From assembly GCA_002490245.1 (NCBI GenBank), contig PCNA01000001.1, forward strand, positions 1-39,694: 39,694 nucleotides of DNA, given 5' to 3'. Origin of the DNA: Candidatus Bathyarchaeota archaeon B24-2. GTDB taxonomy: Archaea; Thermoproteota; Bathyarchaeia; Bathyarchaeales; B24-2. The position numbers and the translations under genes are program-made. Below are positions 799 to 28,000 of this stretch, one piece after another. The notes beneath the pieces were generated by a model. The model saw nothing but the letters and a program-made list of their open reading frames with translations. It was not told the origin of the DNA and ran no database searches. Within the stretch, counting starts at the first letter, position 1. Each line of letters starts with the position of its first letter.

Positions 799-1942
799 AT
801 GGTTCTGCGCATCGCCGTAGTCGGTGTGGGTTCTAGAGCGCAGCATGCCCATCTGCCTGTAATAGCTTCTATGCGAGATGTATGGCGACTAGCGGCCGTA
901 TGCGATATAAATCCATATGTCTCGCGACGAATCGGAGAAGCCTATCATGTTCCTTATTACACAGATATAGAGAAGATGTTGCGAAGAACTGGACGTAGTC
1001 GACTTGTGCACTCCTCCTGACACTCATCATATTATTGCTAAGATAATCGCCGAGCATTCGGTTCACATCTTCTGTGAGACCCCTATAGCGATCACTTTAC
1101 CCTGCGCGGACTTTATGATAAAAGCCGTTAGTAAGGCTGGCGTGAAGATGGAGGTTTCCGAGAATTACCATCGAATGCTCATCGAGAGATCTCGTTTCAA
1201 ACTTTTAGAGGAAGGTATCATAGGAGAAGTTTCTAGAGTCTACAACGTTAATTACAGACACTGCTACCATGGGATGAGTCTTCTACGCCTTTACGCGAAA
1301 AGTGAAGCCAGAAGCGTTACGGGGGCATGTAAAACTTTTAGTCTTAGAGAAGGGAAGGTTGAAAGATGGGATCACGCGATAATCCACTTTAAAAACCATG
1401 TAGTCGCTATTCACGACTTCTGCTCTCCTCGGCCACCGATCCCTTGGAGGAGGACGCGATACATAGAGGTCGACGGAACGAGCGGCTGTGTAGTAAACGA
1501 TGAGGTCTTTTCCTTGACCGATAAAGGACCGAAAAAACTGAAGCTGAGACCGTTAACCGTTAGTGTGAATGGGATAGAAGTGCCTGAGAGAATAGTAATC
1601 GACGATGAAGGGAAATTAAGGACCGTGTTAGTTAATCCTTACAAGAGGTACATGCTTTCAGATAGAGAGATTCAGACAGGTGGTAGCCTCATAAGCGTTG
1701 CAGACATGCTGATGAGCATCGCTGAAGCTGTGAGGAAGGAGACAGAACCAAGATATGGTGCTCTTCAGGCTCGGAAAGACTTAGAGCTTCACATCGCGAT
1801 GAGGGAATCGAGCCTAAGAGGAAGTAAACCCGTAAAGATACCGCTCACCTCGCTTACGAGGTATGAACGTCAGGTTCATCGTCGTTACGAAGAAAAATAC
1901 GGTCACAAGCCTCTAGATGACGCTCTAACTTTAACCGGCTAA
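799..1942 (+). pseudogene. Gfo/Idh/MocA family oxidoreductase interrupted by a +1 frameshift near 985
   Basis: ORF 799-1020 encodes the Rossmann N-terminus (MVLRIAVVGVGSRAQHAHLPVI...YYTDIEKML). The frame of ORF 1004-1942 read back to 983 gives EELDVVDLCTPPDTHHIIA..., the expected continuation of this family. The two parts join if one nt around 985 (cgaAgaa) is skipped. Confidence 0.7.
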
Positions 1943-2058: not shown

Positions 2059-3765
2059 TCAATCGACTTCTACGTTTTCAGAGTATTTAGCGTATAATAG
2101 TTGAGTTTCGAATAAGAAGTTGTTTATAGTAGATAAGAAAGCTCTATTCTTCTGAGAGCCGTTTAACTCGAATTTTTCCGTCATTTTCATCAGTTTCTCG
2201 TAAGCCTCACTAAGAGAGGTGAGTTCGGGCATACTATCGTCGTCTTTAAGTATGTCGTATGCTCCTCTATCAGGATACCTGTACTCCAACCAGCTCTCAA
2301 GATAGATCTCCTTAGAGTTAACTGGTGAGAAAACCGGGGTTTTTCTTATGACTTCTATCTTATATTTCTCCTTTTCTCTATAGAATTCCTGATGTTTTCC
2401 TAAGCAAAAGAGACAATAGACTACCGAGAATATCTTGTACCTCTTCTGTAGATCGGCTATCTCCTTCATGTCTGAGAGTAGCTCTTCTCTCGTATGCGTT
2501 GGAATACCACATAGCATGTAACAGAGAAGTTTGATCCCTGACTTGTAGGAATTTTTAATAACTTCGATTATACTCTCTCTAGTCGTTCCTTTTCTCGAAA
2601 ACTTCAAATACCTATCTGAAAGCGACTCTACACCAAGCATCAGAAATCTGCATCCGCTTTTATATGCTACCTTTAAGACGTCCAAGCTTAAGGATTTAGT
2701 GGGTCGGGCATAGCATCCAAAGTAGATTTTTAACCCTGAATCTATGATCGCTTGGCTTAGCTCCTTCAGCCTAGAACTCGTAACCTCCGAATCTGTAATT
2801 AGGAAGTTCGAAGCATTATATCTCTCTTTTAACGACTTTAAATCCTCTATGACTTTATCGATCGACCTTTTCCTGTACTTAGGACCATATTGAGCATTTA
2901 ACTCGCAGAATTTACATAGTTTCCATGGGCAGTTTCTAGCCGAACTAACAGGCAGGACGAGCTCAGGGAAATAGTAATTCTTCAATTCAAGGTCAGAGTA
3001 GTCGGGGGTGGGTAAAGTGTCTAAATCCTCGATCATACTCTCCTGATTAAAAACTACTTTTCCTTTCCTCCGCCACACTAAGTTTGGAACGTTAGAGTAA
3101 TCGTCATCTTTTTCGATGATCTTTTTCACGAGCTCGAGTAATGCTTTCTCTCCCTCCTTCACGATTATGAAGTCTATGAAGTCGAAGCATTCCATTAGGG
3201 TTTGAAGGTCGAAGTTAAAGTAAGCTGGTCCACCCAACACTACTGGGATATCGCTTTCTCTTTTTACAAGTTTAGCTAGGGAGATCGAGAAGTTTACTTG
3301 GGAGTCAGCTAAAGTCGAGAAACCTATTAAGATCGGGTTATCATCTAATATCCTCTTAACTTTCTCCTTTAAGTATTCGAATATTGGGTTTTCATCGAAT
3401 CTTATTTTACCCTCGATATAAAGTTTAAGGATGGAGTTAAAGTGGTTTGAGTATTCCATCATGATCGAGAAGAAGGGTGCAACATAATCCACTATCAAAT
3501 CCTTATTATAGAATAACTTTCTGTTTTTAATTATCTCTTTAGCCGTTTCACACAGGATTTCCTCATTAACGCACTCGATCTCGTCTTTCCCTATTAACCT
3601 ACAGATCTTACCATCGACTATGTCGTCGACAAACTCAAGGTTTAAGTCTAAGGTTTTAACGTAAATGTTTTTCAGGTTTCTCTCTACATAACTCTTTAAG
3701 TATGCTATACCGATCGGCACGCAGGAAGGCGCGATATAGGGTGGAAATATGAGATTTACTCTCAT
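2059..3765 (-). CDS. B12-binding domain radical SAM protein with non-canonical CX4CX2C cluster motif
   Basis: 568-aa ORF. The N-terminal half resembles a cobalamin-binding domain (IGFSTLADSQVNFSISLAKLVKRESDIPVVLGGP). The radical SAM core contains ARNCPWKLCKFC. The gene is visibly AT-richer than its neighbours (about 33-38% GC in sampled lines versus about 50%). Confidence 0.75.
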   Translation of the reverse strand: MRVNLIFPPYIAPSCVPIGIAYLKSYVERNLKNIYVKTLDLNLEFVDDIVDGKICRLIGKDEIECVNEEILCETAKEIIKNRKLFYNKDLIVDYVAPFFSIMMEYSNHFNSILKLYIEGKIRFDENPIFEYLKEKVKRILDDNPILIGFSTLADSQVNFSISLAKLVKRESDIPVVLGGPAYFNFDLQTLMECFDFIDFIIVKEGEKALLELVKKIIEKDDDYSNVPNLVWRRKGKVVFNQESMIEDLDTLPTPDYSDLELKNYYFPELVLPVSSARNCPWKLCKFCELNAQYGPKYRKRSIDKVIEDLKSLKERYNASNFLITDSEVTSSRLKELSQAIIDSGLKIYFGCYARPTKSLSLDVLKVAYKSGCRFLMLGVESLSDRYLKFSRKGTTRESIIEVIKNSYKSGIKLLCYMLCGIPTHTREELLSDMKEIADLQKRYKIFSVVYCLFCLGKHQEFYREKEKYKIEVIRKTPVFSPVNSKEIYLESWLEYRYPDRGAYDILKDDDSMPELTSLSEAYEKLMKMTEKFELNGSQKNRAFLSTINNFLFETQLLYAKYSENVEVD

Positions 3766-3881: not shown

Positions 3882-5351
3882 ATGGAACCTTGTGAGAGCG
3901 TAAAGGATTACATTCAAAAAGTCGATTTGCAGGGCGTTAAGTGTATTCTCATCGACCCTCCTAGACTGGTAAACCCATCGTGGAGTGATGGCATAAAAAA
4001 GATCCTTAGGTTTCACGACATAAATCCGCCGATGGGGCTAGCTTATATCGCGGGAGTGCTTAGAGAGGCCGGAGCAAAAGTAAAGATCTTAGATGCTAGG
4101 TCTCTGAGCATGCCGCATAACGAAGTTTTAAGGATAGTTGAGAAGAACAGGCCTGATTATGTAGGTATAACAGCCGTTACCCCACAGATGAAGAGCGCTT
4201 TATATTTATCTAAACTCATTAAGGAGAGCTGCCTAGACACAAAAATTATCCTTGGAGGACCACACGTCCATTTCGAGCATGAAGCGATAATCAGAGAGAA
4301 CGACGTTATAGACTTTTGTGTCAGAGGAGAAGGAGAGCTCACCCTACTAGAATTAATTAAGACTTTAAGAGAGAAAGGCAAACTCGAGAAGGTTAGAGGA
4401 ATCACCTTTAGAAGAGGTAAGAGAGTGATAGTGACTCCAGACAGGCCTTTCATAAAAGATTTAGACTCACTACCATACCCTGCAAGAGACTTACTGCCCA
4501 ACCATATATATAAATACTCAAAGTTTGGGTTAAACTGGACAGTCCTACTTGCTCAGAGAGGCTGTCCTTATAGATGCCACTTCTGCTCGAACCATGCGAT
4601 GTGGCGTTATCAGAGGAGGAGGTCTGTAGAGAACGTCTTAGACGAGATAGAGTATTGCCGTAGAAGGTTTCACGTCGAATACATAAAGTTTGCGGACGAC
4701 GTTTTCGTAATCAACAAGAAATGGGTCGCGGAGTTCTGTAAAGGCTTGATCGAGAGAGGGTTAGACGACATCCGATGGGCATGCGACTGTAGAGTAGACT
4801 TATTATCGGAGGACATACTAAGGAAGATGGCAGAGGCTAACTGCGAAACGATATTCTTCGGGTTAGAATTCGGAAACCAGAGGATACTGGATTTATGTGA
4901 GAAAGGTTTCACAATCCCCCAGATCTATAGGGCCATAAAAGCTACAAAGAAGGCTGGAATCTCACCATGCGGATACTTCATGATAGGGTACCCTACAGAG
5001 ACTAGGGAGACCATCATGGATACGATAAACCTCGCTAAAGACTTAATCCTAAACTACGGTTTAGACTACGCCGGCTTCTCTATAGTCACACCCTATCCAG
5101 GAACGAGACTCTACGAGTACTGTAAGAAGAGGAATATACTGAAGACTTGCGACCATCTACTTCATCCAAGGGAAGGATATATCGAGGTGGGAGGGAAGAG
5201 TGCCATGATCCTACTTCCATATCCCCCGATCAAATTAGAGAACCTTACGGACGAGGAATTAATAGAGTTATATCGAAAGGCTCATGAGGAAGTCGCTAAA
5301 GCCTTCGAGGAGCGAAGACAGAAGTTATCAGGAAAAATCTATCACGTATAA
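3882..5351 (+). CDS. B12-binding domain radical SAM protein (class B, canonical CX3CX2C)
   Basis: 489-aa ORF. B12-binding-like N-domain (YVGITAVTPQMKSALYLSKLIKESCLDTKIILGGPHV), then QRGCPYRCHFCSN and a typical class B radical SAM core. Confidence 0.85.
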   Translation: MEPCESVKDYIQKVDLQGVKCILIDPPRLVNPSWSDGIKKILRFHDINPPMGLAYIAGVLREAGAKVKILDARSLSMPHNEVLRIVEKNRPDYVGITAVTPQMKSALYLSKLIKESCLDTKIILGGPHVHFEHEAIIRENDVIDFCVRGEGELTLLELIKTLREKGKLEKVRGITFRRGKRVIVTPDRPFIKDLDSLPYPARDLLPNHIYKYSKFGLNWTVLLAQRGCPYRCHFCSNHAMWRYQRRRSVENVLDEIEYCRRRFHVEYIKFADDVFVINKKWVAEFCKGLIERGLDDIRWACDCRVDLLSEDILRKMAEANCETIFFGLEFGNQRILDLCEKGFTIPQIYRAIKATKKAGISPCGYFMIGYPTETRETIMDTINLAKDLILNYGLDYAGFSIVTPYPGTRLYEYCKKRNILKTCDHLLHPREGYIEVGGKSAMILLPYPPIKLENLTDEELIELYRKAHEEVAKAFEERRQKLSGKIYHV

Positions 5352-19925: not shown

Positions 19926-20576
19926 TCACGCTTTCTGCGCTATCATCTCCTTACATTTCTGGACTCCTTGTACAGCGTCTACGGCGAAAGCGTCAGCTCC
20001 TATCTTCGAAGCGAACTCCTCCGTTATCGGTGCTCCTCCGACGATAACCTTAACTTTATCTCTTATGCTCGCCTCTTTCAGCGCTTTTATAACGTTTTCC
20101 ATCTCCACCATGGTGGTTGTGAGCAGAGCTGATAAAGCTAGTATGTCAGCGTTCGTTTCCTTCACTTTCTCCACGAACCTCTGAGCGTCGACGTCTACCC
20201 CTAAATCGTGAACCTCGAAACCAGACGACTTTAAGAGTGTTATCACGATGTTCTTTCCGATGTCGTGTAGGTCTCCCTTGACGGTGCCTATAACCACCAC
20301 TCCCTTTCTACCTACAGGAGTTGCTTTAAGATGTGGTTCCAAGACCTCCATGCCCGTCTTCATAACCTCTCCGGCCATGATGAGTTCTGCTAGAAAATAC
20401 TCTTTCTTCTCATATTTCTTGCCTACGATCTCCATACCCTTTGCCATACCCTTAGTCACTATATCTAACGCTGGGATCCCCGCCTCTAAGGCTTGGTTTA
20501 CAAGGTTCTTTATGTTGTCTATGTCGAATTCGACTATCGCTTTGCTTATCTTCTCCAAAATTTCCTCCTTACCCAT
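19926..20576 (-). CDS. Corrinoid (cobalamin)-binding protein, MtaC/MtbC-like
   Basis: 216-aa ORF with an N-terminal helical cap and a Rossmann-like B12-binding domain carrying GTVKGDLHDIGKNIV (DxHxxG). Confidence 0.8.
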   Translation of the reverse strand: MGKEEILEKISKAIVEFDIDNIKNLVNQALEAGIPALDIVTKGMAKGMEIVGKKYEKKEYFLAELIMAGEVMKTGMEVLEPHLKATPVGRKGVVVIGTVKGDLHDIGKNIVITLLKSSGFEVHDLGVDVDAQRFVEKVKETNADILALSALLTTTMVEMENVIKALKEASIRDKVKVIVGGAPITEEFASKIGADAFAVDAVQGVQKCKEMIAQKA

Positions 20577-21791: not shown

Positions 21792-23951
21792 TCATTCACT
21801 TCCGATAGTCATCTTCACGTCTAGAGCTATAGCTCCTTTACCACGCTCATATACGAATATCGGGTTTATATCTATTTCATTTATCTCCTCGAAATCCATA
21901 GAGAGTTGCGATATCCTCAAGATTATGTCGACCACAGAGTCTATGTCTGAGCTAGTTTCCCCGCGTATACCGCGAAGCAAAGCGTATGCTTTGGTTTCTA
22001 AGATCATCTGGTAGGCTTCCTCCCGTGAGATGGGGGCTAGACGGAAAGATACGTCCTTAATCAGATTCACATATATTCCTCCAAGCCCGAACATTATTAA
22101 GGGGCCGAACTGTAGGTCTCTATGCATCCCGACTATCACTTCTCTACCTTGAGGCACCATCTTCTGGATCTCGACGCCGAAGACCCTAGCGTCAGGCATG
22201 AATATCGAGGCGTTCCTTATTATCTCGTTAAAGGCTAACTCTACCTCCCTGTCCGACTTGAGGTTTAATTTAACGCCTCCGATATCTGTTTTATGTAATA
22301 TCTGGGGGGAGACGACCTTCATTACGACGGGATAGCCTATCTTACGGGAGATCTCGACCGCTTGTCTTCTATCTTGGGCTAACCCATATTCTGGAACCGG
22401 TATGCCATAAGCTTTAACTACCTCTCTAGCCTCCACACTTAAGAGGTTGACCCTCCTCTCCCTTCTAACCCTGTCGAAGATCTCCCTAACGTCGCTTTTC
22501 CTCACCTTAAACTTAGGGATCTCTTGGATTCGTTCGCTTCTAAGGTACTCCCCATACTCTATCATTCCTGCAAGCGTATCCGCGGCTCTCTCGGGATACT
22601 CGAAGTTCGGTATACCTGCTCGAGCTAACAACTCTACGGCTTCTCTTACACTTTCTCCACCCATAAACACTGGTAAGATGGGTTTATTCGGGAACTTGGA
22701 GCGCATCTCTATTATCTTCTTAGCGGTTTCTAAGGGTTGGGTCATCGCTTGAGGAGTTAAAATCACTATGACAGCGTCCACGGAGTAGTCCTTCAGTAAG
22801 GTCTCGAGGGCAAACGCATACCTATCTGCCAAGGCGTCTCCTAGAACGTCGACCGGGTTTATCCAAGAAGCCTCCACCGGAAGTTTGCTTCTCAATCTCT
22901 CTATGGTCGTTGGGGATAGCCATGCAAGGTTCAGGTTACGCTTCGATACTGCGTCCGCCGCTACTATGCTAGGTCCACCAGCGTTCGTTAATATCGCGAT
23001 GTTTCGTCCTTCGGGTGTAGGTTGTGAAGCGAGGGTTAACCCCAAGTTAAACAGATCCTCCAGCGAGTCGACGGTTAATACCCCGCTTCTCCTGAAAGCC
23101 TCTCTGTACGCCACCATACTTCCGGCCATAGACCCTGTGTGAGAGGCGGCTGCTCTAGCTCCGGCGGCGGAGGCGCCGGCCTTGAATACTATTATAGGCT
23201 TTATTTTAGATACCTTTGGAGCCACTTCTAGAAAGCGTTTCCCGTCCTTTATCCCCTCGATATAGATGAGAATCGCCTTAGTGTTCTTATCGTTTGCTAG
23301 CAACTCGATAAAGTCTGTCTCGTCGGTATCCGCCATATTACCAAGACTGATCAAGTTGCTGAACCCTATGTTCTCTCTTTCAGCCCAATCTAAGATGGCT
23401 GTGCATAATGCCCCACTCTGAGAGAAGAAGGCTATATGGCCTTTGATCGGATTCTGCTTCGCAAATGAAGCGTTTATTGGGGTAGAAGTATTTATCAAGC
23501 CTAAGCAGTTAGGACCTAGCATCCTCATTCCGTACTTTCTGCAGATTTCGAGTAGACGCTTTTCCCTCTCAGCACCCTCCACTCCGACCTCCTTAAACCC
23601 GGCTGAAACGACTATGAGACATTTAACACCTTTTTCTCCTGCCTCCTCGGCGACTTGAGGAACTATCTTAGCCGGAACGGCGATTATCGCCAAGTCTACC
23701 TCATCCTCAACCTCGCCTATCTTCTTATAACATTTTAAGTCGAGGATCTTATCGGCTTTAGGGTTCACCGGATAGATCTGCCCTGGATACCCTGACCTTA
23801 TAAGGTTCCTAACGATCTCATGTCCCACCGCTCCAGGAGTCCTAGAAGCACCTATAACCGCGACGGACTTAGGTCTAAGAAACTTTTCGAGTATACTTAA
23901 CCTGTCCTTCTCGTATTTGCTATATAATCGGGGTTTCATGATTTCTTCCAC
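21792..23951 (-). CDS. acd: ADP-forming acetyl-CoA synthetase (acetate--CoA ligase), fused alpha-beta form
   Basis: 719-aa ORF. It has a CoA-binding domain (SVAVIGASRTPGAVGH), a succinyl-CoA-synthetase-like flavodoxin domain with the SHTGSMAG phosphohistidine segment, and a C-terminal ATP-grasp domain. The start may be the internal Met at 23939. Confidence 0.85.
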   Translation of the reverse strand: MEEIMKPRLYSKYEKDRLSILEKFLRPKSVAVIGASRTPGAVGHEIVRNLIRSGYPGQIYPVNPKADKILDLKCYKKIGEVEDEVDLAIIAVPAKIVPQVAEEAGEKGVKCLIVVSAGFKEVGVEGAEREKRLLEICRKYGMRMLGPNCLGLINTSTPINASFAKQNPIKGHIAFFSQSGALCTAILDWAERENIGFSNLISLGNMADTDETDFIELLANDKNTKAILIYIEGIKDGKRFLEVAPKVSKIKPIIVFKAGASAAGARAAASHTGSMAGSMVAYREAFRRSGVLTVDSLEDLFNLGLTLASQPTPEGRNIAILTNAGGPSIVAADAVSKRNLNLAWLSPTTIERLRSKLPVEASWINPVDVLGDALADRYAFALETLLKDYSVDAVIVILTPQAMTQPLETAKKIIEMRSKFPNKPILPVFMGGESVREAVELLARAGIPNFEYPERAADTLAGMIEYGEYLRSERIQEIPKFKVRKSDVREIFDRVRRERRVNLLSVEAREVVKAYGIPVPEYGLAQDRRQAVEISRKIGYPVVMKVVSPQILHKTDIGGVKLNLKSDREVELAFNEIIRNASIFMPDARVFGVEIQKMVPQGREVIVGMHRDLQFGPLIMFGLGGIYVNLIKDVSFRLAPISREEAYQMILETKAYALLRGIRGETSSDIDSVVDIILRISQLSMDFEEINEIDINPIFVYERGKGAIALDVKMTIGSE

Positions 23952-24049: not shown

Positions 24050-25853
24050 TCATCCACCAAAGATTTTGCGTCTAACGATCTCCAGATACTCGTTTAATGC
24101 TTTAACCTCCTCCTCTGAGAGGAGATCCCGCATCTTAGAGGTTAGAATCTTAGCGTGTTCTTGAGGAACCCTAACGTAGAGGGTCTCTCCCTCCCTTACA
24201 TGTCTGCCGACTATCGGTTTATGCATAGAGATCGCGACTTGCATTCCCGTGCTTGCTTCAGATATCGGTTTTCCTTTATCCTGGATCTGAGAGATTTCCC
24301 CTATATCCCGCCCTCTCTCTGTGATCAAGGGGACTCTCGGTTTAATAGATCCTGCTAGAACCTCCACGCCGAAGATCGCTGGTTTAGCCTTCCGAAACAC
24401 GTATCCCGGTAAGACTCTAATCTTCGCCGGCTTGATCAGCCTCCTGTACTCTTCCATCTTCCTTCTGTCTTGCTGCTCCTTAAACCAGTTAAGATAGTCC
24501 TCTAGGAGATGGTAGATTATGTTGCTTCTGAAGATTTTGACCCCTCTGTTGTTCGCCTCCAATTCGGCGTCTGGTAAAACTTTAACGTTGAACGCTAAGA
24601 TCACTCCGTAAAGAGGCTCACTCTCCTTGACGACTAAAGCCTCCATGACGTCTCTTTTCGAGACGTCTCCGACATCGGCTAGTCTGACAGGCACTTCATG
24701 ACGTCTTAAACTTTCGACTAATGCCTCCAAGGAACCCAGCGTATCGGTCTTTAACACTATTCCATCGATCTCCGTGGATATCTTGATCTTTTCGACCTCT
24801 TCGGTTACGGCCTTCACGTAATCTTCTAGATTCTCTCCCTCTGGGACAGAATATAATGGTGATCCTGCTAGGGCTTCCTCTAGATTTGGTGCGACTATCT
24901 TTACTCCAGCCGCTGCGCTCACAGACTCGACGTCCGTGAACTTGTCTCGTGGATCTCTTATCTCGTCAAGAGGCTTAGGGAGTAGGATCGCGCGGACTCT
25001 AGTGATTATAGGCTTTTCCTTACCTCCCAGTACTATAGTGTCCCCCTTCTTCAAGACTCCGTCGAAGAGTATCACGTTCACCGTCATCCCGAGTCCTGTT
25101 TCCTCCCTCACTTCGAGTATGGTTCCCTTCGCCGCGCCCTCGGTGACCTGAAGCTTACGTTCCAAGTATGCTTGGGTTAACCCTATAAGCACGCTTATAA
25201 GGTCAGGTATACCCTCACCTGTCTTAGCGCTTGTAGGTATCAAAGCTACGGTCTTCGTGAAGTCTCTTATCCTGTCGTACCGGTCAGACCTAAACCCGAG
25301 GACTGAGAAGGAACCCATTATCTCGTAGAGGCGGTTGTTCAGCTCCTCGACGACATACTTATCCTGCTTCTTTATGGAGAAGATGAAAGGTTCGTCTTCA
25401 TGAGGCTTCCATCCAGGTATCCTATCTATCTTATTCACGGCGACTAGGAAGGGGGTCTTCCTATCCCTCAATATATCTATACACTCGTAGGTCTGTGCCT
25501 CAAAACCCCTCAAAACGTCTATAACCAATATTGCTATGTCGGCTACGGCTCCCCCTCTACGCCTGAGGTTCGCGAAAGCCTCATGACCGGGAGTATCTAT
25601 AATCAGTAAACCTGGGATCCTAATCTTAAACTGTATGTCTTTCATAAGGGGCTTGGTAACCGCGATCAACGTATCTGTAGGGAAAAAACTGGCTCCTATA
25701 TGCTGTGTGATACCTCCGGCCTCACGGGCCTGAACGGTGCTCTTTCTAATCCTATCTAGTAGAAGGGTTTTTCCCGTGTCGATTGGCACCTAGCAGGTAT
25801 GCGCCTGCTAGGTTATGCCCCAACACGGCTACTATAGGCTGTCTTACGGGCAT
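24050..25853 (-). CDS. infB: Translation initiation factor aIF5B (IF-2), split: exon 1 25853-25814, 31-nt intervening sequence 25813-25783, exon 2 25782-24050 (spliced CDS 1773 nt, 590 aa)
   Basis: The track ORF (24050-25789) starts PIDTGKTLLLDRIRK...GGITQHIGA and therefore lacks the first half of the G1 motif. Upstream, in another frame, ATG 25853 encodes MPVRQPIVAVLGH. Removing 31 nt joins them as ...LGHIDTGKTLLLD. Confidence 0.8.
25783..25813 (-). other. Putative bulge-helix-bulge (BHB) intron within the infB coding sequence
   Basis: Minus-strand RNA: A-CCUAGCAGG-CGCAUA-CCUGCUAGG-UGCC-AA. The flanks form a 4-bp central helix GGCA/UGCC with 3-nt bulges UAA and AAU, and an outer helix GUGUUG/CGACAC (whole motif 25776-25826). 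Confidence 0.65.
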
Positions 25854-25974
25854 ATTCCGCTACCTCTTCCTCCCTATCTTCGGAGTTTCACCTCACACAG
25901 TTAAACCAATTAAAGGAGGAGCTTCCTTATTTAAAAAGTGTTTTTCTGTGAAATCGAAGGTGAAAAAACAGGTT

Positions 25975-27110: not shown

Positions 27111-27530
27111 TCACGCCTCGGTATGGCCGGACGACTTAATCGGTACTCTCTTGATGTCTGGTATTCTATCGAAGGCTTCATCGTCTGAGACTACTTGACG
27201 ATCTAATGTTAGCGCGGAAGCAGCTATAAGGCTGTCGAAGTAGCTCAGTCGATATTTCTCCTCTAGCTCGCTTTGAAAAGCTAGCAGGCTCACGCTTAAC
27301 GTCTTAACCTCCTTCACGTTATTCTGCGTTAGGGCTTCGTGTAGAGCTAGTAGCGCGATCCTAACCTGAGATGGGCTTCTACCGCGGGCTCTAAGAACTA
27401 TTTGAAACTCTAGTATGGCGGTATCTGGTACGACGAGCCCGTTTACCTCTTTAAGTAGGTTTATTGCGTCCTTGTGTTTCCGATCTCTAGGGTTCATGGC
27501 GAAGAGGAGTTCTGTGTCAGCGACCGGCAT
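27111..27530 (-). CDS. vapC: PIN-domain ribonuclease toxin (VapC-like)
   Basis: 139-aa ORF. Acidic residues are placed as in PIN domains (VADTELL..., ...DSLIAASA..., VVSDDEAFD). It overlaps the upstream antitoxin gene by 14 nt. Confidence 0.7.
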   Translation of the reverse strand: MPVADTELLFAMNPRDRKHKDAINLLKEVNGLVVPDTAILEFQIVLRARGRSPSQVRIALLALHEALTQNNVKEVKTLSVSLLAFQSELEEKYRLSYFDSLIAASALTLDRQVVSDDEAFDRIPDIKRVPIKSSGHTEA

Positions 27531-27759
27531 GGCTCTTCAGCCACCTTTCTGCTTCAGGCTCGTCTCTCTCCTCCTCGTATGGTTCGCCGATAACTTCTTC
27601 CAATACCTTGTAGGGATTACGTGGCAGAGGTTCGATTATTATCTTCCCTTCCTCGACGTGGATGAGAACCCTCTGCCCCTCTTTAAGGGTTAATTCTTCC
27701 CTAATGGTTTTAGGTATCACCAGTGTATATCTTCTGCCTATAACAGATTCTTCAGACAT
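27517..27759 (-). CDS. vapB: AbrB/SpoVT-type antitoxin (VapB-like)
   Basis: RRYTLVIPKTIREELTLKEGQRVLIHVEEGKIIIEPL is a swapped-hairpin AbrB/MazE-type motif. I prefer the internal ATG at 27759 (MSEESVIG...) over the track start at 27816. Confidence 0.7.
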   Translation of the reverse strand: MSEESVIGRRYTLVIPKTIREELTLKEGQRVLIHVEEGKIIIEPLPRNPYKVLEEVIGEPYEEERDEPEAERWLKSHAGR

Positions 27760-28000
27760 ATAAATCACTATACGTAAATAATGTGGATTATCAGATAAAA
27801 ACTTAATCGCACGCACCTTTATACTGGAGGCCTACTCGCCGGCTAATATCAGTTAGGAACCTAAAGGTTGGAAAACCAAAAACCGTCTTCAGACGTGAGG
27901 AACTTTAACCTCCTCTCAAGCGATTATCGCGTCCAACTTACGGCTGGGATGTTAATCTCATGAGACTTCACCTACATAGCTAGACCTTTCATCGGTGGAC

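Follow-up and report, generated by a model that had tools for sequence, protein, structure and literature searches.

Why should the gene for aIF5B (infB), an essential and universal translation GTPase, appear to start inside its own P-loop in Candidatus Bathyarchaeota archaeon B24-2? The question arises on the 39,694-nucleotide (nt) contig PCNA01000001.1 (hereafter the window, meaning the whole stretch of DNA analysed), where infB is read on the minus strand. The longest infB open reading frame (ORF) in the ORF list, 24050..25789 (minus strand; 579 amino acids), starts at GTG 25789 and reads (M)PIDTGKTLLLD, and ATG 25853 opens a 33-codon ORF, 25853..25752 (minus strand), which encodes MPVRQPIVAVLGHNLAGAYLLGANRHGKNPSTR before its stop codon and lies in a frame other than that of the 579-residue ORF. 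The first-pass annotation had described the locus in this way, as a long ORF from the GTG and a separate ATG frame that stops if the RNA is left unspliced, and the ORF list agrees on both counts. The answer that we favour, with a probability of roughly 0.86, is that the 31 nt at 25813-25783 of the minus strand are an archaeal bulge-helix-bulge (BHB) intron of the aIF5B gene; comparison with relatives indicates that this insert would be cut out of the aIF5B mRNA.

Removal of 31 nt restores the P-loop of aIF5B

Read on the minus strand, the infB RNA runs ...GGGAGGAAGAGGUAGCGGAAU-AUG CCC GUA AGA CAG CCU AUA GUA GCC GUG UUG GGG CAU A, then through the insert ACCUAGCAGGCGCAUACCUGCUAGGUGCCAA and on into UC GAC ACG GGA AAA ACC... 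The features of the locus are as follows (h, H and h' denote the outer, central and inner helices of the fold described below).

25863 to 25874, minus strand: Shine-Dalgarno-like purine-rich stretch GGGAGGAAGAGG, 5' of the true ATG 25853, as read from the sequence
25814 to 25853, minus strand: predicted exon 1 of aIF5B (infB), 40 nt, comprising the ATG, 12 codons and the first base of codon 14 (MPVRQPIVAVLGH + A)
25783 to 25813, minus strand: putative BHB intron, 31 nt, A-CCUAGCAGG-CGCAUA-CCUGCUAGG-UGCC-AA, with cuts predicted at 25814/25813 and 25783/25782
24050 to 25782, minus strand: predicted exon 2 of aIF5B, UC GAC ACG GGA AAA ACC ..., encoding (I)DTGKT... to the stop codon
25787 to 25789, minus strand: GTG taken as start by gene callers, lying in the conserved h'/H sequence G-GUG-CC
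25752 to 25754, minus strand: stop of the exon-1 frame in unspliced RNA, ending a 33-residue dead-end peptide (ORF list)

Deletion of 25813-25783 yields a 590-residue protein with the N-terminus MPVRQPIVAVLGHIDTGKT, in agreement both with solved aIF5B structures and with intron-less Bathyarchaeia homologues, which are 592 residues long and begin MPVRQPIVCVLGHIDTGKTLLLD..., an N-terminus shared by 164 intron-less clusters. The predicted intron would lie in phase 1 of codon 14 (Ile), within the P-loop GH/IDTGKT, and its excision creates the junction CAU A/UC GAC, which encodes GHIDTGKT; Ile occupies this position in intron-less relatives as well. The predicted junction of the spliced mRNA is GUGUUGGGGCAUA/UCGACACGGGAAAAAC (...GGGCAUA/UCGACAC...), from which the junction peptide QPIVAVLGHIDTGK would be expected. 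When the excision proposed in the first-pass annotation was computed, the result was the 590-residue aIF5B with GHIDTGKT that it had foreseen.

The spliced product carries the Pfam domains GTP_EFTU, IF-2 and GTP_EFTU_D4, has its closest database proteins in Bathyarchaeia and matches the PDB aIF5B structure 5fg3 over residues 3-585 (E = 2e-205), with further matches to 7yyp and 1g7r. Exon 1 aligns to the β1 strand and the start of the P-loop (RQPIVxVLGHxDxGKT) of the solved structures. The GxxxxGK[ST] P-loop, the preceding β1 and the IF-2 and domain IV regions are complete only after excision; the unspliced 579-residue ORF lacks β1 and the first P-loop Gly. The gene sits in its customary neighbourhood, the L7Ae-S28e-L24e-infB cluster, and GGAGG-like runs are also found 5' of the ATG or TTG starts in related infB loci.

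The insert and its exon flanks fold into a BHB motif

A BHB motif consists of two 3-nt bulges separated by a helix of 4 base pairs (bp) (PMC5829648). The elements of the fold in the window are these.

25821 to 25828, minus strand: outer helix h, 5' strand CC-GUGUUG, exonic, pairing with 25781-25774
25774 to 25781, minus strand: outer helix h, 3' strand CGACAC-GG, exonic (codons D-T-G)
25820, minus strand: extra G between h and H, unpaired or in a wobble pair with U25782 that leaves a 2-nt 3' bulge
25816 to 25819, minus strand: central helix H, 5' strand GGCA (from positions 2-3 of the Gly codon and 1-2 of the His codon)
25785 to 25788, minus strand: central helix H, 3' strand UGCC, intronic
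25813 to 25815, minus strand: 5' bulge UAA, with the predicted 5' splice site after A25814
25782 to 25784, minus strand: 3' bulge AAU, with the predicted 3' splice site after A25783
25789 to 25812, minus strand: inner helix h' of 9 bp, CCUAGCAGG pairing with CCUGCUAGG and closing a 6-nt loop, CGCAUA

The core of the outer helix pairs GUGUUG (25826-25821) with CGACAC (25781-25776), and a CC/GG extension brings it to 8 bp. The 31-nt insert and all the helix and bulge coordinates given in the first-pass annotation proved correct base for base, including the unpaired G25820 that it placed between the outer and central helices. A 63-nt region spanning the motif folds at −35.1 kcal/mol, compared with −18.3 ± 2.8 kcal/mol in 200 dinucleotide shuffles (z = −5.9; reached by 0/200), and the BHB structure is kept when it is folded in a 151-nt context.

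We searched both strands of the window with a home-made BHB scan that looks for the strand order h-H-bulge-h' and scores the pairs in the flanking helices. Loose BHB-like matches occur at chance frequency, about 50 per strand in the window and about 45 in shuffled sequence. The infB site scores 17 (9 + 8 pairs), the rest of the window reaches no more than 14 and 12 shuffled windows peak at 13-15. The infB site is the only BHB-like site above chance in the window, and no other loose match there coincides with a frame break. The window contains no tRNA detectable by ARAGORN and no RNA family known to Rfam.

The insert recurs at one site in two lineages

At least 12 further loci, from independent assemblies in ENA, NCBI, JGI and Logan, have an insert of 29-33 nt at the same site. 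Their hosts are sediment and vent archaea of two Bathyarchaeia lineages, and they include the following.

L001, ENA: insert of 31 nt, window lineage
L002 (the same as L124), NCBI GCA_964627655.1: insert of 29 nt, window lineage
L003, Logan SRR14241346: insert of 33 nt, in frame yet with a UAG, window lineage
L129, GTDB species representative: insert of 31 nt, window lineage
L128, GTDB representative: insert of 31 nt, second lineage
L133, Candidatus Bathyarchaeota archaeon BA2 (published metagenome-assembled genome, MAG), LIHK01000029.1: insert of 32 nt, second lineage
L134, JREQ01002505: insert of 32 nt, second lineage
L135/L136, ENA / Logan: insert of 32 nt, second lineage
L137, JGI: insert of 31 nt, second lineage
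L140, ENA: insert of 31 nt, second lineage

In the second lineage the insert occupies the same nucleotide position, in genes whose proteins are only 69% identical to that of the window. Proteins at least 74% identical to the window's are all 579-580 residues long and start xIDTGKT. One further locus, L138 from an ENA hydrothermal-vent metagenome assembly, matches a 161-nt segment of the window that includes the insert at 100% identity; since this assembly is independent, the insert is not an assembly artefact, a possibility that the first-pass annotation had raised against itself. Alignment of related infB loci, which it had also proposed, showed the insert to be present in two lineages with compensatory changes and to be cleanly absent elsewhere.

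At these loci the public annotations are N-truncated. KPV62984.1 has 572 residues and starts MLDQ, MDH5449566.1 has 581 residues and starts at a GTG inside the intron, some calls run through the intron as VCSGITQLSKPFWVPVDTGKT (594 residues), and no public record marks an intron. We also scanned metagenomes with the pattern GGGCATAA-N{15,45}-RTCGAYACGGG; it was rejected as too loose, the 120 matches listed being unrelated sequences with 0 infB among them.

Pairing and coding are both conserved across the site

We analysed the structure in an alignment (A2) of ten intron-bearing sequences, with n = 500 shuffles for covariation. The central helix H is paired in 40/40 cells of this alignment: the exonic GGCA is fixed and the intronic strand is UGCC, UGCU or UGUU, so that only wobble-compatible changes occur. 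Both bulges are 3 nt long in all ten sequences; the 5' bulge is UAA in 10/10 and the 3' bulge is AAU or AGU, the latter in L002 and in the second lineage. The inner helix h' is 89% paired and ranges from 5 to 11 bp, with a loop that varies freely. Four of its pairs have changed on both sides with pairing kept (U-A/C-G, A-U/G-C, G-C/A-U). The covariation score of 0.242, compared with 0.170 ± 0.016, was reached by 0/500 shuffles. Pairing amounts to 86% of all cells and falls to 27-45% once the partner strand is slid by 1-3 columns, and RNAalifold finds the same helices when given no structure.

The outer helix has GUG/CAC and a U.G pair that are invariant in the ten sequences. In the BA2-type lineage (L128 and L133-L137), UCG/CGA followed by GUG/CAC abuts H, and the G equivalent to 25820 pairs with the C of CGA, giving the strict arrangement of outer helix, bulge, central helix, bulge and inner helix (hBHBh'), which calls for flanking helices of 2 bp or more. 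In the window h is 8 bp long and is offset from H by the extra G25820.

The exons evolve as coding sequence. Pairwise comparison of exon 1 among the ten intron-bearing loci gives 157 synonymous and 50 non-synonymous codon differences; the amino-acid exchanges are limited to P/S, V/I and A/C. At protein identities as low as 69%, both exons are still intact and subject to purifying selection. The unspliced readings end in or just past the insert in all ten loci, including the 33-nt in-frame variant, which has a UAG. The insert is 29, 31, 32 or 33 nt long, multiples of three not being favoured, and this variation in length argues that it is not a coding insert. The Gly-His codons at the junction are GGG CAU in 10/10 intron-bearing loci and GGU or GGA CAC in 6/6 intron-less loci; a fixed GGG CAU is what one would expect if pairing with the intron holds the third position of the Gly codon. 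Comparison of L128 with the intron-less L132, and of L140 with the intron-less L139, gives in each case a clean 31-nt indel at the predicted junction. The interpretation as a BHB intron put forward in the first-pass annotation thus draws strong support from covariation, from selection on exon 1, from the junction residue, from the clean indels and from the use of one site in two lineages.

Proposed splicing pathway and points that weigh against it

In the pathway that we propose, the exon-1 sequence GGCA and the UGCC at the 3' end of the intron would pair in the pre-mRNA to form the 4-bp helix H between two 3-nt bulges, with the exon-exon helix and the intron hairpin flanking the bulges. The tRNA-splicing endonuclease EndA would then cut past the second base of either bulge (25814/25813 and 25783/25782), an RtcB-type ligase would join ...GGGCAUA to UCGACACG..., and translation from ATG 25853 would give a normal 590-residue aIF5B. 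Cleavage by EndA would produce ends with 2',3'-cyclic phosphate and 5'-OH groups, which RtcB would ligate. There is an A/A repeat at the sites, and cuts one base upstream at both sides would give an identical mRNA in the window. Cleavage between the second and third bulge residues, which the first-pass annotation had given, agrees with the published rule (PMC2738675). We infer the enzymes involved, the exact cut positions and efficient splicing in vivo; neither an endA nor an rtcB gene lies within the window.

Several observations weigh against this proposal. The exact spliced 590-residue protein was not found among 15 billion predicted proteins, so no cDNA-type (complementary DNA) contig in that collection backs splicing. 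The intron lies just 40 nt from the AUG, and ribosomes would somehow have to avoid unspliced transcripts when transcription and translation are coupled. Folding with RNAfold, a check suggested in the first-pass annotation, recovered the same fold region; its optimum, however, is a neighbouring register in which A25813 pairs with U25788 and H has 3 bp, and the canonical 4-bp register lies just 0.6 kcal/mol above it. A25816 and A25813 compete for U25788, and as all three bases are invariant, covariation is indecisive between the two registers. Under the standard cleavage rule, only the canonical register brings the two exons back into frame; the neighbouring register, with 29 nt removed, fails to do so. 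Owing to G25820, the 3' bulge becomes a 1x3 internal loop or shrinks to 2 nt, which makes the 3' site of the window lineage a relaxed one, and such a site would need an (αβ)2 EndA of broad specificity, the type that has a specific loop for relaxed sites; according to the literature, relaxed motifs are cleaved by the (αβ)2 enzymes of TACK archaea. Finally, the count of intron gains and losses given below rests on a rough neighbour-joining tree.

The 592-residue members of mixed clusters were considered as spliced copies and rejected, being diverged intron-less alleles with GGT CAC. A group I or group II intron or an intein was likewise rejected for an insert of 29-33 nt that varies in length by non-multiples of three and contains stop codons.

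Alternative explanations of the interrupted frame

The alternative that fares best, although we consider it improbable, is that no splicing occurs and that translation from GTG 25789 gives an N-truncated aIF5B of 579 residues, with the exon-1 peptide acting in trans or not at all; this is what the public annotations imply. All the intron-bearing loci do have a GTG at this point, and gene callers use it. That GTG is, however, an automatic by-product of the conserved G-GUG-CC, is buried in a helix and has no Shine-Dalgarno sequence, and its product would lack β1 and the first Gly of GxxxxGKT, both of which align to the structures only with exon 1 joined. Moreover, exon 1 is conserved as coding sequence, whereas the read-through peptide tail is not conserved and varies in length, so that the purifying selection on exon 1 would be left unaccounted for. 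The GTG at 25787..25789 is probably a consequence of the conserved h'/H sequence and is unlikely to be a real start.

Less probable still is programmed translational bypassing or frameshifting, in which the ribosome would hop over the hairpin after exon 1, as on gene 60 of phage T4, and resume at AUC GAC. A stable hairpin does stand directly after the last exon-1 codon, and according to the authors of PMC2738675 the cbf5 introns were themselves mistaken by others for translational frameshifting. Matched take-off and landing codons are nevertheless missing: CAU (His) is followed by AAC and not by a stop codon, the codon before AUC is CCA with no His codon there, and the sole match of an Asn codon (AAC/AAU) would land out of frame. 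What is conserved is the symmetric BHB core, with its 3-nt bulges 4 bp apart and its pairing between exon and intron 3' end, rather than a take-off site, and the insert ranges from 29 to 33 nt with a loop free to vary.

The last alternative is a dead gene or an artefact: the insert would stem from faulty assembly or polishing, or a hairpin would have inserted into infB and inactivated it while another copy works. In its favour, an apparent 1-nt frameshift in another gene of the window (799-1942) indicates that errors or pseudogenes are found on this contig. It is effectively refuted by the identical sequence in an independent ENA assembly, by the at least 12 further loci with the insert at the same site, by the intact exons under purifying selection, by helix covariation and, as a weak test of single copy, by the finding of one infB locus per species-representative genome in a genome scan.

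Intron state follows a short segment at the 5' end of infB

The distribution of the insert is patchy. Judged by their N-terminus, 26/191 retrieved protein clusters are of the intron type, and many intron-less lineages lie between the two intron-bearing groups. The L128 protein is 91% identical to the intron-less P0017 and only 69% identical to that of the window. Both states occur within single 90% clusters, the intron-less P0219 and the intron-type P0224 being 97.6% identical. A parsimony count on the neighbour-joining tree gives at least eight changes of intron state, which we take as 'several' given the roughness of the tree.

Comparison of L140 with L139 at the DNA level locates where the two states differ. 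Between the start codon and a point about 40 nt beyond the junction, 20/80 spliced nucleotides differ, mostly synonymously, compared with 62 differences in the other 1702 nt (Fisher p = 7e-11). When eight loci are compared, the sequences of an 87-nt 5' segment cluster according to intron state (identities of 86-98% within a state and 74-82% between states), whereas the rest of the infB gene groups by lineage; intron presence therefore travels with a short recombination tract. Intron state is tied to a 5' tract of about 100 nt. The pattern fits gain or loss, in either direction, by homologous recombination with co-converted exon flanks.

The same pair of loci differs upstream. In L140 a catalase gene (606-2186) stands between a radical-SAM gene and infB, which is not so in the 96%-identical, intron-less L139, and a zone of high divergence runs from this insertion to about 40 nt past the intron site (L140:1-2600 compared with L139:2039-2600). 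The 5' boundary of infB has the look of a hot spot for recombination or rearrangement.

The first-pass annotation had suggested that such an intron could couple aIF5B synthesis to tRNA-splicing capacity. The claim that the intron is kept because it gates aIF5B synthesis on EndA/RtcB activity has no support, and the patchy presence of the intron among near-identical relatives makes such coupling less likely. Because of this patchiness, the intron most likely behaves as a dispensable element gained or lost by homologous recombination, and not as a regulator. A more specific possibility, which we hold only tentatively and at somewhat worse than even odds, is that the mini-intron is an actively exchanged mobile allele that would pass between Bathyarchaeia lineages by homologous recombination (co-conversion), taking about 40 nt of the exon on either side along with it, despite encoding no homing enzyme. 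Were this true, the locus would offer a natural system for studying how endonuclease-type introns colonise or leave protein-coding genes.

Relation to known introns

A pre-mRNA intron in the cbf5 gene of Crenarchaeota was reportedly described by Watanabe in 2002 and by Yoshinari in 2006. As of 2020, reports of introns in archaeal mRNA were confined to cbf5 and to the 5' untranslated region (5' UTR) of HVO_1309 (PMC7714728). Reviews from 2020-2023 name only these two mRNAs, cbf5 and HVO_1309, as handled by the archaeal tRNA-splicing endonuclease and expect that more will probably come (PMC7714728, PMC10485636), which bears out the statement of the first-pass annotation that cbf5 is the only well-documented case within a coding sequence. 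Our full-text literature search returned nothing on an aIF5B or infB intron, nor on mRNA introns in Bathyarchaeia.

The cbf5 introns are mini-introns of 16-44 bp with relaxed BHB-like motifs (Yokobori 2009, PMC2738675), and the two cases have in common a mini-intron with a BHB-like motif in coding sequence and cuts predicted between the second and third bulge residues. In both, a catalytically essential motif is interrupted, so that removal would be obligatory, and some in-frame variants would still need splicing; both also show patchy gain and loss and are misannotated or ignored in genome records. They differ in host and lineage: cbf5 encodes a pseudouridine synthase, and its introns belong to Desulfurococcales, Sulfolobales and Thermoproteales, whereas the aIF5B intron lies outside these groups, in the P-loop of a Bathyarchaeia gene 40 nt from the start codon, and is not a member of the cbf5 family. 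The BA2-type aIF5B motif is a strict hBHBh', in contrast to the relaxed cbf5 motifs. For cbf5, endonuclease cleavage has been shown and spliced cDNAs have been sequenced; the aIF5B intron is predicted from sequence. Intron state in aIF5B goes with a recombination tract; PMC2738675 nowhere uses the words 'recombination', 'lateral' or 'horizontal'.

The other mRNA case, HVO_1309 of Haloferax volcanii (Schwarz 2020, PMC7714728), likewise extends the substrates of the archaeal splicing endonuclease beyond tRNA and rRNA, and its spliced reads were seen by RNA sequencing (PMC7714728). It differs in that the intron lies in the 5' UTR, leaves the reading frame uninterrupted and belongs to a euryarchaeon. 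With the BHB introns of tRNA and rRNA, which are processed by EndA and RtcB, the aIF5B insert shares the 3-nt bulges, the 4-bp helix and the pairing of the 5' exon with the 3' end of the intron, and it falls within the size range of tRNA introns (11-175 nt). Unlike them, its substrate would be an mRNA with no mature tRNA domain, in which the exonic strands are constrained by codons (GGG CAU, GAC AC).

A more distant parallel is the stress-regulated splicing of HAC1 and XBP1 mRNAs, which are cut by the endonuclease IRE1 and joined by tRNA ligase or RtcB. These systems resemble the proposed one in being non-spliceosomal, in using a protein endonuclease at two structure elements of an mRNA followed by a tRNA-type ligase, and in changing the frame. 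The link between XBP1 and RtcB is mentioned in PMC8718801. They differ in relying on IRE1 and twin stem-loops where aIF5B has a BHB motif, and in being regulated by stress, of which the aIF5B data show no sign.

The aIF5B gene would be the second known archaeal coding sequence to need such splicing, this time in a translation GTPase of the globally abundant Bathyarchaeia, the much-cited MAG BA2 included. The kind of element is already known; the host gene, the lineage and the recombination-linked polymorphism are new. Public records show N-truncated proteins without half of the P-loop, so gene callers and marker-gene pipelines mis-handle intron-bearing aIF5B genes. Because intron-bearing and intron-less alleles can exceed 97% protein identity and the recombination tract is sharply bounded, the locus offers an unusually clean view of intron gain and loss.

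Other observations at related loci and in the window

Scanning of about 107 kb of related loci for BHB motifs gave extra matches at chance level only. One of them, at L126:1313-1368 (plus strand), is a BHB-like fold with an h of 7 bp, an h' of 8 bp and a would-be intron of 49 nt, and it lies immediately 5' of L7Ae (start codon at 1387) in an intron-less MAG of the Bathyarchaeia. A score of 15 puts it at the top end of what chance gives; the fold could be nothing, or it could be a 5'-UTR element, for example an L7Ae K-turn regulator or a BHB.

A Gfo/Idh/MocA-type oxidoreductase at 799-1942 (plus strand) of the window is contained in two ORFs. The first (799-1020) covers positions 1-60 of the Pfam GFO_IDH_MocA profile and the second (1004-1942) positions 69-118. 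The reading frame is broken near 975-982, where it shifts by 1 nt in GAG AAG ATG TTG c GAA GAA CTG GAC, which would read EKML/EELDVVDLCTPPD; neither a hairpin nor a BHB is present there. A sequencing indel, a pseudogene or a +1 frameshift could each account for the break, and a look-up of the 312-residue frame-mended product gave no record from other assemblies.

Between the L7Ae-S28e-L24e-infB cluster and a Glu/Gln-tRNA synthetase gene lies a pair of genes for a MazE-type antitoxin and a PIN-domain toxin (VapBC-like; 27111-27816, minus strand). The two adjacent ORFs were considered as a split gene, which was rejected in favour of the antitoxin/toxin pair, and no gene is called in the corresponding interval of the related loci L002 and L003. 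Elsewhere the window has two adjoining B12-binding radical-SAM enzymes, at 2059-3765 (minus strand) and 3882-5351 (plus strand), and, in an ordinary metabolic context, a small separate B12-binding-domain protein (19926-20576) and an ADP-forming acetyl-CoA synthetase (21792-23951).

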